Shown: piece after piece, positions 58,814 through 63,939 of the stretch
Layout of the letters: every line of letters begins with the position of its first letter
Numbering within the stretch: the stretch's first letter is position 1
Source: Planctomycetota bacterium
GTDB lineage: Bacteria; Planctomycetota; PLA2; JAEUHO01
DNA length: 64,000 nt
Reading direction: 5' to 3'
Assembly: GCA_965222115.1 (NCBI GenBank)
Contig: CBDCTJ010000003.1
Coordinates: 1 to 64,000 of the forward strand
Translations under genes and position numbers: made by a program
Notes under the pieces: generated by a model
Seen by the model: only the letters and a program-made list of their open reading frames with translations
Told to the model about the DNA's origin: nothing
The model's database searches: none

Positions 58814-59338
58814 ATGACAACAATCCTTGCGCTCCGCCACGGGGGCAAAACGGTGCTCGGCGGCGACGGCCAAGTGACCCTCGGGCAACAGATTCAAAAA
58901 CGCGGCGCGGTCAAAGTTCGCGCCCTCATGGATGGCCAAGTCCTCGCGGGCTTTGCGGGCGGTGCCGCCGATGCCATGTCGCTCATGGAGCGCTTCTCAG
59001 CCAAACTGGATGAGTTTGGCGGGCAGCTGATGAAGGCCGCCGTCGAACTGGCCAAAGAGTGGCGTTCGGATCGTGCGCTTCGGCGACTCGAAGCCGTGTT
59101 GATTGTGGCCGACGCTAAAGAACTTTTGCTCGTCACGGGGACGGGCGATGTGATTTCGCCCGACGATGGCGTGGTGGCTACAGGGAGTGGCGGTGCCTAT
59201 GCGCTGTCGGCCGCGCGCGCGTTGATGCGTCATGGATCGCTGGATGCAAAGGCGTTGTGCACAGCCGCGCTCGGCATTGCCGCGGAGATCGATCTCCATA
59301 CCAATGATTCGCTCACGGTATTGGAGGCGAAAGCGTGA
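58814..59338 (+). CDS. hslV: ATP-dependent protease subunit HslV
   Basis: MTTIL, GDGQVTLG, AGFAG, WRSDR.LRRLEA, GSGG.YA. Confidence 0.97.
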   Translation: MTTILALRHGGKTVLGGDGQVTLGQQIQKRGAVKVRALMDGQVLAGFAGGAADAMSLMERFSAKLDEFGGQLMKAAVELAKEWRSDRALRRLEAVLIVADAKELLLVTGTGDVISPDDGVVATGSGGAYALSAARALMRHGSLDAKALCTAALGIAAEIDLHTNDSLTVLEAKA

Positions 59339-60753
59339 AACTACCCACCGGCAAGCGCACGGAGTCCGCGAAACGACAAAGCGGATGTGAACTAACGCCC
59401 TCGGAAATCGTGCGCGCGCTCGATCGGCATGTCGTGGGTCAAAAACAAGCGAAACGCGCCGTCGCGGTGGCTATTCGCAATCGATGGCGTCGCATGCAAC
59501 TCGACAATGACATGCGCGCCGAAGTATTGCCGAAGAACATTCTTTTGATCGGTGCCACAGGCGTGGGCAAGACTGAGATTGCGCGGCGCATTGCTAGTCT
59601 GATCGGCGCGCCATTCACTAAGGTCGAGGCAACGAAGTACACCGAAGTGGGTTATGTCGGTCGCGATGTAGAAAGCATCATTCGCGATCTGACGGCGAGT
59701 GCGATGACGCTCGTCAAAGCATCGGCCAAGAAGACGGTAGAAACGAAGGCAGCCGAATCCGCAGCATCGAGAATTCTCGACGCCCTGGTGAACGCGTATA
59801 AGCCCGGCGATCCCGATCTTGATCCGCTGGGTCTGGGCAGAGCGGATGACACGAGCGCAGTGACCGACCTATCGGCCGTGCGCATCAAGCTACGTCAACG
59901 TTTGCAGGCCGGCGCACTGGAAGACCGAGAGATCGAGATCGATGTGCAGAGCACCGCATCCACGCCCCTCGGCAACATCTTCGACAATCCATCGTTTGCA
60001 CAGTCCGGCATCGATTTCTCGAAGATGTTTGAGCAGGTCGCGCAGCAAAGTACGTCGAGCAAACGCATGACGGTGCGCGAGGCGCGCAAAACGTTGATTG
60101 ACGAAGAGGCGGAAAAGCTTGTCGATTCGAGCGACGTAGAAAGTGAAGCCGTGAAACTCGTCGAAAATCAGGGCATCGTGTTCCTCGACGAGATCGACAA
60201 GGTGGCGGGATCGGATCGCACACAGGGCGCCGATGTATCGCGGCAGGGTGTACAACGCGATCTGTTGCCGCTCGTCGAGGGCTGTACAGTTCACACGCGC
60301 TTTGGCCCCGTATCAACCGACCACATTCTCTTTATCGCGGCCGGCGCGTTCCATGTGAGTAAGCCAAGCGATCTGTTGCCCGAGTTGCAAGGGCGACTGC
60401 CCATTCGCGTGCGCCTGGACAACTTGCGCGAAGAGGACTTCGTGCGCATACTCAAAGAACCAAAGAACGCGCTCACGCGTCAATACGAAGCACTCCTCGC
60501 AACCGAAGGCGTGCGCATACGATTCGCCGACGATGGCATCGCGGAAATCGCTCGCGTGGCCGCAGCAGCCAATGCACTCCACGAGAACATCGGCGCCCGT
60601 CGCCTCAGCACGGTCATGGAACGCGTATTGGACGAAGTCTCCTTCGAAGGCGGCTCCCTCAAGGGCCGCGACGTCGTCATCGACCGCGCCTACGTTGTCT
60701 CCCGCACCCACGACCTCCTCGAAGACCAAGACCTAGGCCAGTTCGTCCTCTGA
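59335..60753 (+). CDS. hslU: ATP-dependent protease ATPase subunit HslU
   Basis: RNRWRR, PKNIL.IG.TGVGKTE, GYVGRDV, DEIDK, GVQRDLLP, ENIGARRL. Confidence 0.97.
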   Translation: MKLPTGKRTESAKRQSGCELTPSEIVRALDRHVVGQKQAKRAVAVAIRNRWRRMQLDNDMRAEVLPKNILLIGATGVGKTEIARRIASLIGAPFTKVEATKYTEVGYVGRDVESIIRDLTASAMTLVKASAKKTVETKAAESAASRILDALVNAYKPGDPDLDPLGLGRADDTSAVTDLSAVRIKLRQRLQAGALEDREIEIDVQSTASTPLGNIFDNPSFAQSGIDFSKMFEQVAQQSTSSKRMTVREARKTLIDEEAEKLVDSSDVESEAVKLVENQGIVFLDEIDKVAGSDRTQGADVSRQGVQRDLLPLVEGCTVHTRFGPVSTDHILFIAAGAFHVSKPSDLLPELQGRLPIRVRLDNLREEDFVRILKEPKNALTRQYEALLATEGVRIRFADDGIAEIARVAAAANALHENIGARRLSTVMERVLDEVSFEGGSLKGRDVVIDRAYVVSRTHDLLEDQDLGQFVL

Positions 60754-60922
60754 TGCGCCCAAAATACCTGGTATTCGTGGCGCATGGTTTCCCCGCGGAA
60801 TCGCAGACACCGGCGCGAGCGGGCCATTGCTTGGAGCGCTAGCCTGCGATGCGCCAGAAATACCTGGTTTCTGTGGCGCACGAGCGTTTCGTGCGCCAGA
60901 TTTACCTGGTATTTGTGGCGCG
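60754..60922. repeat. Three 31-bp imperfect palindromes (REP-like)
   Basis: TGCGCC-(a/c)(g/a)aatACCTGGTwtyyg-TGGCGC at 60754-60784, 60850-60880 and 60892-60922. Confidence 0.85.
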
Positions 60923-62386
60923 CTCGGAAGCGCGCTGACCGAAGAGGGCGGCGTGGTATTCGGATTCGGTCATGACTTCGGTGGTGGTTGGGAGCGGGCC
61001 GGGTTGACGATCTTCGGAGGTGTTTTCCATTGCGTCGGGAATCACCGTGACCATGCGTCGAGGGGTGCGCACGTAATCGCGCTCGGTGATGCGAGAGCCG
61101 GGCTTCACGAGAATGTCCTTTGTGCGGTAGCCATTGGCGTGTTGCACGGTGCGGGTGCCAATACGCTGTTTGATGTAGCGAACGCCTGCGTATACGCGCG
61201 ACACGGACTCCCCCACCTTTACGCGCTTTCGGCAGGTCCCGCTGGGCACCTTCTGTGTCGTGTATCCCACAATACGTACGTCTTTACGAGTTCCGACTTG
61301 GTATTTCTCACGCTTGGTCCCGTCAGGCAATTGCTCAATCTTTATTCCCGTAACGCGACGAACCTTGCGCGTGCCCTCTTGCTTCCATCGCAGTCGCACG
61401 CCCATTTTCTTCTTCGTTCGCTTGTGACCGGTCAGCGTCTTGAACCGCTTGGTCCCCTGCAGCACTTCCTTTTCTTCGTGACCGCAGACACGACATACCT
61501 CATCGCCCGTAACGCAATCCTTGATGATCTCACGCTTGGGCACTTTGACCGTGACGTAGTTGGGTACCTCACCCTCTTCGTACTGAGGCTCCCACACTTC
61601 GCGCGTAGCCGGCGTACGTTCCGTCTTCAGAACGGGAAACTCGACATCCTCATACTTATAGACCTTGCGCGTACGCTTGACAGGAACCTCGCGGTAATCG
61701 TAAATCGCAACGTCTACCTCTTTGTAGGTGGGCACTTCGCACGTTCGGTAGGTCGGCACGGTACGCCACTCGTACTTGGGCGTACGAACCGTGCGATAGC
61801 GCGGCACTTGAATAATGCGATACACAGGAATGTCGATCGTGTCGCAAATGGGGATCTTCTTGGTATAGGCACACCCAGGGCAAATAGTCTCTTTCTCGAC
61901 CCAGCGCCCCATGGCAGGAATGATGGCGATATAGGGCTCTCCCGATGTACCTGCTTCGTCATCCGTAGCCCGCTGCGTGCTTGTGTCGCGCCTTTCTCGT
62001 CCGGCCCAGTCTTTGTCAGATTCGGCTCGTTCACCGCCCGCACCGGGAATGTCACCACTTCCAACAACGGGATCGCCGTCTCTTGCCTTCGACGCAGCGT
62101 TACGCGTCGCGGCTCTCCTAAGCGCCTCTTCGACTGCTCGTGCGGTCGCTGTGTCGTGCGCCGACGGTTCAGGCGCCACCCCACCACCCAACGTTCCGTC
62201 ACTCGACGCTGCGCCACCCGCGGGTTCAACCGCACCATCCGGTGCCACTTCCCCCCCGGGCGGTATCGGCGGAACCGGTTCACTGCCGGGCGGCTCATCG
62301 GCGTGGGCCTGAGGAATGAGCGCGAGAATCGCCGCGAGCGCGAACACCTGAACGATAGGCCATGCGCGTCTTCGTGTCTGAATCAT
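60902..62386 (-). CDS. Secreted Pro-octad/Gly-nonad repeat protein A (14+14 repeats)
   Basis: Signal peptide (AHA), acidic Pro/Ala linker, PxYxxxxV octads then Gxxxxxxxx nonads, C-terminal PLPTTTEVMT..EY. Confidence 0.85.
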   Translation of the reverse strand: MIQTRRRAWPIVQVFALAAILALIPQAHADEPPGSEPVPPIPPGGEVAPDGAVEPAGGAASSDGTLGGGVAPEPSAHDTATARAVEEALRRAATRNAASKARDGDPVVGSGDIPGAGGERAESDKDWAGRERRDTSTQRATDDEAGTSGEPYIAIIPAMGRWVEKETICPGCAYTKKIPICDTIDIPVYRIIQVPRYRTVRTPKYEWRTVPTYRTCEVPTYKEVDVAIYDYREVPVKRTRKVYKYEDVEFPVLKTERTPATREVWEPQYEEGEVPNYVTVKVPKREIIKDCVTGDEVCRVCGHEEKEVLQGTKRFKTLTGHKRTKKKMGVRLRWKQEGTRKVRRVTGIKIEQLPDGTKREKYQVGTRKDVRIVGYTTQKVPSGTCRKRVKVGESVSRVYAGVRYIKQRIGTRTVQHANGYRTKDILVKPGSRITERDYVRTPRRMVTVIPDAMENTSEDRQPGPLPTTTEVMTESEYHAALFGQRASERATNTR

Positions 62387-62505
62387 GGACCGCCTCCACT
62401 GCTTCGATCGGAGAAATGAAGGCGCACCTTCACCACCACCAAACGTATTGGACGACGACCGTGTGCGCCTCTTGTGGATCCGCTACGGATGCACGGGGCG
62501 TAGAT

Positions 62506-63939
62506 CTACTTCGAAATGGCCTTGCGGATGGCGTTTCCTGCACCACCACGAGCCATTGCCGTGGCATAGGCCGATTCATATTGGGCCAATGTCATCACTT
62601 CCGTAGTTCCTGGAAGTGGCGATGCGTAGGCGGCACCATTGGCCACCACCGTGACCTTGCGCGCCGGAACACAGACGATGTCGGCCACGCGCTTGGTACC
62701 CGGGCAAATGGGCGTCTTGATGGTGCGGTACCCAACGATCTTCTTGGTCTCTTTGTAGCCCGCCAGATAGCGCTTCATTTCCCAACCGCACTGAATCTTC
62801 TTCGCGCGTTCGCCCGCTCGCACCTTGATCGTTTTGGTGCCGTTGTAGACCTGCTTCGTTTCGCAGTCTTCACACTCACTCACTACGGTCTCGCCGGCAG
62901 GGCGGTGGGTGACCGTATGGGTGAACAGCTTCTTTTCCGTTCGGTAGCCCGCGTGCTTACGCACAGGTGCGTACCCTACGAATATGCGTTCCTTCTTATT
63001 GCCCACCAGGACGCGCTTGGTCTCCCATCCATCGTCCACCTCTTTGGTTTCCATGTGGATGAATTTTTGTGTCTTCCAGCCGCAGGGCACCTTGCGTGAC
63101 TTCGCGCCGACCTGGAGCTCACGACCGGTGTATCCCGCGATAAATGGAACGCGCTTCGTCCCCACGCATACCTTCTTATTGACCCACCCGGCGGGCATCT
63201 TCTTTTCGCATTCGCATATCTTGACGGTTTTACGATCTACGCACTCTTCGCAGGTCCCGCACCCGCCAAAGTACTTCTCGCGGATCTCCTGTGTACCCAA
63301 TACGGGCTCTTTACAGGTCTTACAGACCGGCACACGGATGTAATCGTAAATGGGTTCGTCGCGATAATCGTAGTGCGGGGTTTTCTGATTCTCATACTGA
63401 GGAATCTGGACGGTCTTGTAAATACGTACACGCCGCGTGCGAGTGACAGGAACCTGAATAGTCTTCTTCTTGGGTACGAGTTTTTCCTCGTACACCGGAC
63501 GATCCACCCAACGGTACTGGGGTACATTGACGATCTTGGTCTGGGGCACCTGCTCATCGATGTAGTGTGCTTCGGTGCGCTTGGCCATAAGCGGCTTGAT
63601 CACGCGCTTGGTCTTGGGACGCGTAACAGTCTTCCAATCGGGGACATAGCGCTCTTCAAAGATCGGAATGATCTTGGTCTCGTACTTGGGCACCCGCTTG
63701 GTCTTGTAGACGGGCGTCTTGATGGTCTTGTAGATGGGCTCTTTGCGAACGTGGTTGTCGCAGGGCGTTTGCTCAGTGCGGTAGACCGTGCGCATATGCT
63801 TGGGGATCACTTTGACGCAGCACTTGCGTTGGCCCGTGACCAGCGACACATCGGCCGAGGCGGTCAACGCCGACGTTGTGATCAAAAATGCCGACACACC
63901 GAGTGCCAGGACCCGCGCCGAAATGGGGCTCGAGTTCAT
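62506..63939 (-). CDS. Secreted Cys-rich Pro-octad/Gly-nonad repeat protein B (19+19 repeats)
   Basis: Signal peptide (ASA), GGAGG SD, same architecture as the neighbour, C-terminal PLPGTTEVMT..QY. Confidence 0.88.
   Translation of the reverse strand: MNSSPISARVLALGVSAFLITTSALTASADVSLVTGQRKCCVKVIPKHMRTVYRTEQTPCDNHVRKEPIYKTIKTPVYKTKRVPKYETKIIPIFEERYVPDWKTVTRPKTKRVIKPLMAKRTEAHYIDEQVPQTKIVNVPQYRWVDRPVYEEKLVPKKKTIQVPVTRTRRVRIYKTVQIPQYENQKTPHYDYRDEPIYDYIRVPVCKTCKEPVLGTQEIREKYFGGCGTCEECVDRKTVKICECEKKMPAGWVNKKVCVGTKRVPFIAGYTGRELQVGAKSRKVPCGWKTQKFIHMETKEVDDGWETKRVLVGNKKERIFVGYAPVRKHAGYRTEKKLFTHTVTHRPAGETVVSECEDCETKQVYNGTKTIKVRAGERAKKIQCGWEMKRYLAGYKETKKIVGYRTIKTPICPGTKRVADIVCVPARKVTVVANGAAYASPLPGTTEVMTLAQYESAYATAMARGGAGNAIRKAISK

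Follow-up and report, generated by a model that had tools for sequence, protein, structure and literature searches.

The window analysed in the current work is a stretch of 64,000 nucleotides from a Planctomycetota bacterium (GCA_965222115.1, contig CBDCTJ010000003.1, positions 1-64,000, forward strand). Two neighbouring genes close to its end, here called A and B, encode proteins in which an arm of 8-residue units (octads) is followed by an arm of 9-residue units (nonads). The body of each protein is probably one giant intramolecular beta-hairpin, with a rigid strut or fibre of the cell envelope as the most plausible of its possible roles. Antiparallel pairing of the octad arm with the nonad arm is proposed with high confidence, and a monomeric hairpin, not arms swapped between chains, appears likely; a structural role in the envelope is offered tentatively. 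A and B are head-to-tail open reading frames (ORFs) on the minus strand, 119 base pairs (bp) apart according to the ORF list and its translations. Their parts are listed below, where D is the distance from the lead-in landmark xIP to the cap landmark VTV and AF2 stands for AlphaFold2.

60902..62386, minus strand: gene A (P0001), 494 amino acids (aa), coordinates including the stop codon (ORF list and translation).
62300..62386, minus strand: A residues 1-29, probable Sec signal peptide (MIQTRRRAWPIVQVFALAAILALIPQAHA before the cut and D after it, AHA/D; read from the sequence).
61925..62299, minus strand: A residues 30-154, linker rich in Pro, Gly, Ala, Asp and Glu, net charge -12 (sequence).
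61517..61924, minus strand: A residues 155-290, N-arm of 17 octads (repeat parse; AF2 strands 152-168 and 173-289).
61511..61516, minus strand: A residues 291-292 (CV), hairpin apex (D = 291 = 17x17+2; AF2 non-strand 290-295).
61052..61510, minus strand: A residues 293-445, C-arm of 17 nonads (repeat parse; AF2 strands 296-426 and 432-441).
60905..61051, minus strand: A residues 446-494, conserved cap VTVIPD...PLPTTTEVMTESEY, C-terminal helix and terminal Arg (family alignment; AF2 helix at model residues 325-344).
62387..62505, no strand assigned: spacer between B and A, 119 bp (sequence).
62506..63939, minus strand: gene B (P0002), 477 aa, coordinates including the stop codon (ORF list and translation).
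63853..63939, minus strand: B residues 1-29, probable Sec signal peptide (...TASA before the cut and D after it; read from the sequence).
63283..63810, minus strand: B residues 44-219, N-arm of 22 octads, 3 lead-in and 19 further units (repeat parse; AF2 strand at model residues 32-71, confident at the base only).
63244..63282, minus strand: B residues 220-232, 13-residue tip loop REKYFGGCGTCEE, with CxxCxxC, a CxC following in the next unit (D = 385 = 17x22+2+9).
62656..63243, minus strand: B residues 233-428, C-arm of 22 nonad-equivalents, two of them with 8 residues (repeat parse; AF2 strand at model residues 339-382 pairs at the base).
62509..62655, minus strand: B residues 429-477, cap VTVVANG...PLPGTTEVMTLAQYE, helices and terminal Lys (alignment; AF2 helices at model residues 422-447, low confidence).

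The repeats can be read directly from the translations, which agree with a preliminary description of this DNA in placing a Pro-octad run, a turn and a Gly-nonad run in both ORFs. The N-arm of A starts with three lead-in units (IIPAMGRW VEKETICP GCAYTKKI) and continues with 14 Pro-octads, in which Pro recurs with a period of 8 residues over residues 179-283; 12 of the 14 begin with Pro, and units 7 and 9 begin with Ala and Tyr. The C-arm of A consists of TGDEVCRVC, 14 Gly-nonads with a period of 9 residues over residues 302-419 (14/14 starting with Gly), and the lead-out KPGSRITER DYVRTPRRM. Between the Pro and Gly runs lie 11 residues, CVTGDEVCRVC. In B, 19 octads occupy residues 68-219 (17/19 starting with Pro), the Cys cluster GGCGTCEEC separates the arms, and 19 units of nonad length follow over residues 242-411, 15 of which start with Gly and one of which is an 8-residue unit (METKEVDD). 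The lead-out of the C-arm of B reads CPGTKRVAD IVCVPARK.

Lead-in (xIP..12..P), lead-out (xPA.TR... ....P.RR) and cap (VTVVPDG..PLPGT.EV.TE.EY) are all present in both proteins. The shared C-terminal cap that had been pointed out before, VTV...PLP(G/T)TTEVMT..(E/Q)Y, is common to A and B, and both N-termini do read as signal peptides, probably of Sec type (AHA/D and ASA/D). The matched arms of the preliminary description hold as far as equal numbers are concerned; the counts of 14:14 and 19:19 do not, since three degenerate lead-in octads, two lead-out nonads and the nonad-length segment next to the turn belong to the arms as well. With these counted in by landmark arithmetic, A is 17:17 with a 2-residue turn and B is 22:22 with a 13-residue Cys-rich tip. 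Orthologues of A, at 29-78% identity, have the same number of repeats as A and align across the repeats without a gap. B is colinear over its whole hairpin with P0010, P0012 and P0046, which represent a long, Cys-tipped type; the relatives of B carry Cys-rich tips comparable to its own.

All six frames of the 4.55-Mb genome were scanned for chains with P every 8 and G every 9 residues, and B, A and one further paralogue, C, ranked highest. Seven of the other high scorers were inspected; one turned out to be paralogue C, and six were Pro/Gly low-complexity frames. Chance is excluded as the source of the octad/nonad chains.

A first line of evidence for pairing of the arms is the length rule. 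If the number of octads always equals the number of nonads, D must be of the form 17n + c, whereas independent numbers would leave D modulo 17 scattered; the measure needs no decision about the apex. Repeat counts from a position-weight chain parse were correlated between the arms and differed by -2 to +3, and the landmark distance was adopted because degenerate base units are counted unevenly in such a direct parse. Both landmarks were present in 53 of 70 parsed sequences, some of which are duplicates of one protein and many of which are kin. D modulo 17 equals 2 in 33/53 and lies in 1-3 for 44/53 once two mis-picked VTV landmarks are fixed, which bears out the equality of octad and nonad counts that had been put forward as a check on the family. 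The distinct classes of D, namely 138, 154, 189, 205, 240, 291 and 359, are all 17n+1 or 17n+2, with n = 8, 9, 11, 12, 14, 17 and 21. Most planctomycete members have 2 residues between the arms (D = 17n+2), and A belongs to the class of 291 (n=17). The exceptions to the rule are P0015, P0038 (a tip deletion), P0044 and P0058 (probably landmark errors) and B itself, the D of which carries 9 additional residues (n=22).

The same rule was found in a second family, in which the order of the arms is reversed. These proteins were reached by phmmer at E-values of 2e-9 to 5e-4 (P0042, P0032, P0063, P0066 and P0026 are examples) and consist of nonads, a tip domain of about 50-340 residues and then octads, with a transmembrane (TM) anchor or YSIRK signal at the N-terminus. 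In one of them a YSIRK-type signal is combined with an insert of 340 residues; a TM segment is present in others, and some contain Listeria-Bacteroides repeats. A search with P0042 gave 515 clusters at E<=1e-5, almost all without a Pfam domain or a name. In the ESM Atlas the clusters nearest to this family are in Bacillota, and the phylum is known for a few members only; the family is probably from Bacillota. The landmarks used for it were W..W, preceding the nonads, and [TLVIS][YF]Y[RK], following the octads; 96 of 121 proteins had both, and in 87 of the 96 the corresponding distance D2 modulo 17 fell in {2,3,4}. Eight classes of the form 17n+3 were seen (190, 224, 241, 258, 275, 309, 326 and 343). 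For the 72 proteins with scores >40 in both arms, separate repeat counts of the two arms gave a correlation of r = 0.81. The 17-residue rule is therefore kept with inverted order and a folded tip domain between the arms, as a fold-back stalk predicts.

A second line of evidence concerns the register in which the arms face each other. With the Gly of each nonad dropped and both arms counted from the base, the product of facing charges was lowest at a single shift, in which octad position x faces return position x-1. Charge complementarity in register was -0.121, against -0.051 +- 0.006 after shuffling of units, and 0/2000 shuffles reached it, a significance that is overstated for 32 proteins that are kin. 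In the implied pairing, octad Arg6 stands opposite nonad Glu5, and their charge product averages -0.40. For the 17 sequences of the n=11 class, charge covariation along antiparallel diagonals averaged -0.29 at this same shift, all other registers staying inside +-0.14. For the 7 sequences of the n=17 class the value at that shift was -0.28; a second dip, to -0.19, lay two residues off, where diagonal neighbours on the same face are expected. The 5 sequences of the n=14 class were too noisy to read. The reverse-order family has too small a number of variable charged columns: its best value, -0.16, fell at a shift that could not be interpreted, and a second class gave no data.

Mirrored units were observed in L005 (G009:C4), an open frame of 552 aa with 21 rungs, in which three octad types face three nonad types at equal index from the base. 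The octad types are PEYENVEV, ACYATRQV and PVYTTRKV, and the nonad types are GTRTE+R(L/F)x, GYRPE(Q/R)YQS and (G/D)YRxEQV(Q/L)C. A duplicated block of three units lies at units 8-13 on both arms, and its copies are 98.6% identical in DNA on the octad arm and 81.5% on the nonad arm.

Structure prediction gave a similar picture for A. AlphaFold2 was run on residues 150-494 of A together with six orthologues, the linker being left out (model numbering +149). The mean predicted local distance difference test score (pLDDT) was 79.8, five models ranging from 75.6 to 79.8, and the predicted template-modelling score (pTM) was 0.28. Two strands of 117 and 131 residues were predicted at model residues 24-140 and 147-277. 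The break between them, at model residues 141-146, corresponds to residues 290-295 and matches the arithmetic apex. Lead-in and lead-out units appeared as short strands and were followed by the C-terminal helix. One antiparallel hairpin formed by the arms of A is what AlphaFold2 predicts, and covariation supports it.

In the PDB, Foldseek found no match to the model of A at E<=1e-3 (best E 0.068, TM-score <=0.11), and VIA-align found none among 48,161 chains at Z>=5 (best Z 2.6). The only kinds of chain ranked by Foldseek, none of them significant, were those with long hairpins, from the phi29 tail knob, lysenin, Vibrio cytolysin and MspA. Such hairpins of pore toxins and phage tails span a few tens of residues and are part of oligomeric barrels, unlike the strands of >100 residues in the model of A. 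The single antiparallel ribbon that had been proposed from the sequence of A and B is supported by length arithmetic in two families, by covariation and by the AlphaFold2 model of A. Unequal arm counts, a predicted solenoid or a characterised family to which the proteins could be assigned were looked for, and none was found.

Several observations weigh against the hairpin reading or limit it. Because the proteins in the length and covariation tests are kin, raw counts overstate their independence, and the distinct length classes are the sounder measure. When unit-similarity matrices of the two arms were correlated over the whole family, register 0 was not favoured (mean r 0.18 at shift 0 vs 0.25 at shift +1); the signal was clear solely in one subfamily, which was picked after the data had been seen. 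The spacing of Cys-Cys pairs across the arms showed no peak at the paired register. The prediction for B, made from a 4-row alignment with three distant relatives, had a mean pLDDT of 44.1, and a confident strand was limited to the basal ~40 residues of each arm. The structure prediction suggested in the preliminary description gave a hairpin for A and a poor model for B, whose fold rests on the sequence tests. We know of no solved precedent for a free two-stranded ribbon of >100 residues, and it is doubtful that one would be stable as a monomer. As for function, a search among the neighbouring genes for a partner of A and B found none (12 loci, crude ORF calling). A disulfide-meshwork role like the one proposed for the planctomycete YTV wall proteins is less obvious, since Cys makes up 1.6% of A and 3.6% of B, against 7.8-14.8% in four YTV proteins.

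The monomeric state is the point on which an alternative deserves most discussion. The arms may pair between chains, in a domain-swapped dimer or in run-away swapping that leads to filaments or a meshwork, and the length rule and covariation fit antiparallel pairing within and between chains alike. An isolated ribbon would also expose Val, Ile and Tyr on both faces, which favours association, and several Cys occur in the family, with paralogue C reaching 11.3% Cys and having Cys/Pro-rich ends. On the other hand, the 2-residue gap between the arms in most members would make immediate fold-back kinetically favoured, AlphaFold2 folds A as a monomeric hairpin at a pLDDT of about 80, and the reverse-order family has a folded tip domain between its arms, as expected of a fold-back stalk. 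Swapping between chains is for these reasons judged unlikely. It is far less probable still that the arms do not pair at all and form separate structures, such as a trimeric beta-helix of the kind built by phage fibre octads or disordered low-complexity segments, the predicted hairpin being an artefact. Octads can occur in other settings, as in P0009 (2072 aa) and P0013 (4166 aa), which have 34 octads each together with Laminin_G_3 and Peptidase_S74 domains, and in P0035 (1140 aa), where octads stand beside a stretch like the C-terminus of T4 gp5. AlphaFold2 can moreover draw long hairpins for repetitive sequence, and the pTM of the A model is low. Unpaired arms would, however, give no reason to expect the congruence of D modulo 17 over 7 + 8 length classes in two families, and would leave unexplained both the mirrored unit types and a covariation confined to a single register in two length classes.

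The structure may also be as proposed and serve another role, in surface fibres, adhesin-like spacers or rods that bind a polyanion such as acidic polysaccharide, lipopolysaccharide or nucleic acid; this is considered somewhat improbable. With net charges of +32 over 291 residues in A and +42 over 385 in B, the two hairpin cores are Lys-rich and the most cationic in the family, at about +11 per 100 residues compared with a family median of +1.4, and A has in addition the acidic linker of 125 residues. One face of the ribbon would present regular Tyr, Thr and Gln and might bind glycans, and in the Bacillota-like family and the YSIRK-signal protein the two-arm module would be a stalk with a tip domain. 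The planctomycete members, by contrast, have a tight turn or a small Cys knuckle and no tip domain, and strong positive charge is limited to A, B and the closest orthologue of A, so that it is not a trait of the family. Within the envelope, the cationic charge of A and B may serve for binding to an anionic polymer.

If the single-chain hairpin is correct, the outgoing strand would be composed of 8-residue units (PVYETRxV) and the return strand of 9-residue units (G[TYW]RTE[QRK][VY]Q[CV]), with unit i from the base on one strand opposite unit i on the other. Gly would be the additional residue by which the return strand stays in register with the other, with one beta-bulge per repeat. Since each step pairs one octad with one nonad, the length of the rod would come in whole 17-residue steps, 17 in A and 22 in B. 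Fully extended at ~3.3 Å per residue, A would be at most roughly 45 nm long and B 58 nm. Both ends of the chain would meet at the base, where the lead-in and lead-out units and the cap form the only non-repetitive part. The base may be the end for attachment or interaction, and in B-type proteins a small Cys knuckle would stand at the far tip. Such proteins could act as rigid struts or fibres of the envelope, in the part played elsewhere by the Cys-rich YTV proteins and in a lineage where YTV was not found.

Homologues of A and B are narrowly distributed. Neither Pfam nor NCBIfam gave a match above noise to A or B, and a word-indexed homologue search with B recovered B alone (1/6370 candidates). 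An exhaustive phmmer search with B over 1.84 billion representatives found 69 proteins at E<=1e-3, B itself included. Whole-genome searches gave matches in 17 of the 24 further genomes from the taxonomic family of the source bacterium (f1), in 0 of 11 from the sister family and in 0 of 5 from other families. A profile of 27 short members matched 14/16 f1 genomes and 1/384 from the rest of the phylum, the latter weakly (9.7e-6). Judged from these searches, A and B would represent a Sec-exported and undescribed family that is restricted to planctomycetes and has no Pfam or NCBIfam model.

The members follow a common plan. A signal peptide is followed by three degenerate lead-in octads (xIPAxxEx VxRxVxxP AVTxxxxV), n octads of the form PVYETRxV and the turn PVTxxVCD-PC-TGxxxxVxC. 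The second half contains nonads of the form G(T/Y/W)RTE(Q/R/K)(V/Y)Q(C/V), two lead-out units (RPAxTRxVx ExVxxPxRR), the cap (VTVVPDG...PLPGTxEV(L/M)TExEY) and a short tail. Length classes of the family are often three rungs apart (n = 8, 11, 14, 17). Although the tail past the cap ranges from 29 to 93 residues, 31 of 41 database members end in Arg and 4 in Lys. This last residue may be a signal for sorting, or for attachment as in Braun's lipoprotein. Giant proteins with domains of tail-fibre type, P0009, P0013 and P0035, have 31-34 Pro-octads and no matching arm of Gly-nonads; octad arrays can thus exist without a partner arm, perhaps in trimeric fibres.

The paralogue found by the genome scan, which answers an earlier suggestion to look for further copies, lies outside the window (G000:C3:222717-223937, plus strand; L002/L035). 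C has 407 aa and arms of 12:12. Its octads start with Tyr, Pro stands at position 7 of some units, and Cys/Pro-rich 'DPC' segments are present at both ends. C looks intermediate between the A/B family and the Cys-rich YTV proteins, and the YTV model of Pfam does not match it.

The pairing of A with B as neighbours is conserved. The surroundings of an A-type gene were seen in two other genomes (L006, L014), and both have a B-type gene immediately upstream of it, like the window. An HslU-like AAA+ ATPase gene at 59335-60753 on the plus strand is convergent with A and has no apparent functional link to it. Past the end of the window come a short-chain dehydrogenase-like gene and AddAB-like genes, and AddAB-like synteny in two relatives was the sole result of the neighbourhood comparison. 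Two long plus-strand frames, 60827-62419 (530 aa) and 62362-63099 (245 aa), were rejected as shadow ORFs in repeat-coding DNA of 59% G+C.

The opinion is evenly divided on a wider proposal, that matched octad and nonad arms define an unrecognised and widespread class of rods with >100 residues per strand and 17-residue rungs, which would appear as bare rods of 8-22 rungs serving as envelope struts in planctomycetes, as inverted stalks that keep a tip domain at a distance from the membrane in Bacillota and as a 16:16 version in the YTV proteins. If true, these would be by far the longest beta-hairpins known to us and a new single-chain rod of countable length. Hundreds of unannotated membrane-anchored proteins of Bacillota would be explained as stalks, and rods that can be tuned digitally would be of interest as spacers in protein design. 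Should the prediction hold, the proteins of the planctomycete envelope, YTV included, would have a concrete structural hypothesis that can be tested. Two distant repeat arrays that expand in step would represent an unusual evolutionary constraint, which is open to study in these sequences.

Among known systems, the alveolins (IMCp, PF12314) and articulins resemble A and B in their short repeats of Val, Pro and charged residues. To PF12314, B gave a sub-threshold match only (E 0.61, 10.9 bits vs a cut-off of 21.1) and A gave none. These are eukaryotic cytoskeletal proteins in which, to our knowledge, no second complementary arm exists. The reverse-order family shares both repeat consensuses (GTKTEQVQV nonads and PVYETRxV octads) and the 17-residue rule with A and B; it differs in its inverted arms, its tip domain, its TM anchor or YSIRK signal and the absence of the planctomycete cap. 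This likeness may reflect either homology or convergence.

The closest resemblance may be to the YTV proteins (PF07639), which like A and B are found in planctomycetes only, have signal peptides and contain an octad-like motif, PV(Y/W)ETK/R. According to the portions of the literature considered here, YTV proteins are Cys-rich, have been recovered in cell-wall preparations and belong exclusively to the class Planctomycetia; one of them is essential in Planctopirus limnophila, where a role in wall rigidity was suggested; and the same portions give their composition and describe no fold (PMC8567305, PMC12673574, PMC10632474). The resemblance noted in the preliminary description is apt, and membership does not follow from it: the Pfam YTV model (cut-off 21 bits) had no match at E<=1 in A, B or any of 27 relatives, and none in the genome of the window (completeness 90%). 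This model matched 11/11 f5 genomes and 0/8 f1 genomes, and the A/B family was found in 0/20 f5 and 14/16 f1 genomes; the two distributions are complementary. In the ESM Atlas, YTV clusters are among the nearest to A (0.80), which is taken as a lead only. Alignment of the A/B-family and YTV profiles by hhalign covered 52 columns of the octad arm and gave a weak match (probability 30.8%, E 5e-4).

Four YTV proteins that were inspected (L038, L039, L040 and L042) have a 16-residue period in both halves, which flank a PGP/Cys-rich segment in the middle of the protein; in L038 the halves number 9+9 units. The second half is a 16-residue array, unlike the return arm of A and B with its 9-residue units starting with Gly, and the Cys content of the four contrasts with the values of A and B, that of C being 11.3%. 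YTV proteins may nevertheless follow the same fold-back plan with equal periods, 16:16. No relevant account of a giant hairpin or of an octad/nonad stalk turned up in literature searches, and one candidate, PMC12415215, proved unrelated. The architecture of A and B, of which those searches gave no description, appears to be related in kind to the YTV wall proteins.

A comparison in design, with no relation in sequence, is offered by the stalk of streptococcal antigen I/II. In that protein the alpha-helix of the A-region is wound antiparallel with the polyproline helix of the P-region, below a large tip domain. Its stalk combines an alpha-helix with a polyproline II helix, whereas the arms of A and B are predicted to be beta-strands. 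The design is shared nonetheless: two distant repeat regions pair antiparallel, and the number of repeats sets the length of the stalk, as is proposed here for A and B.

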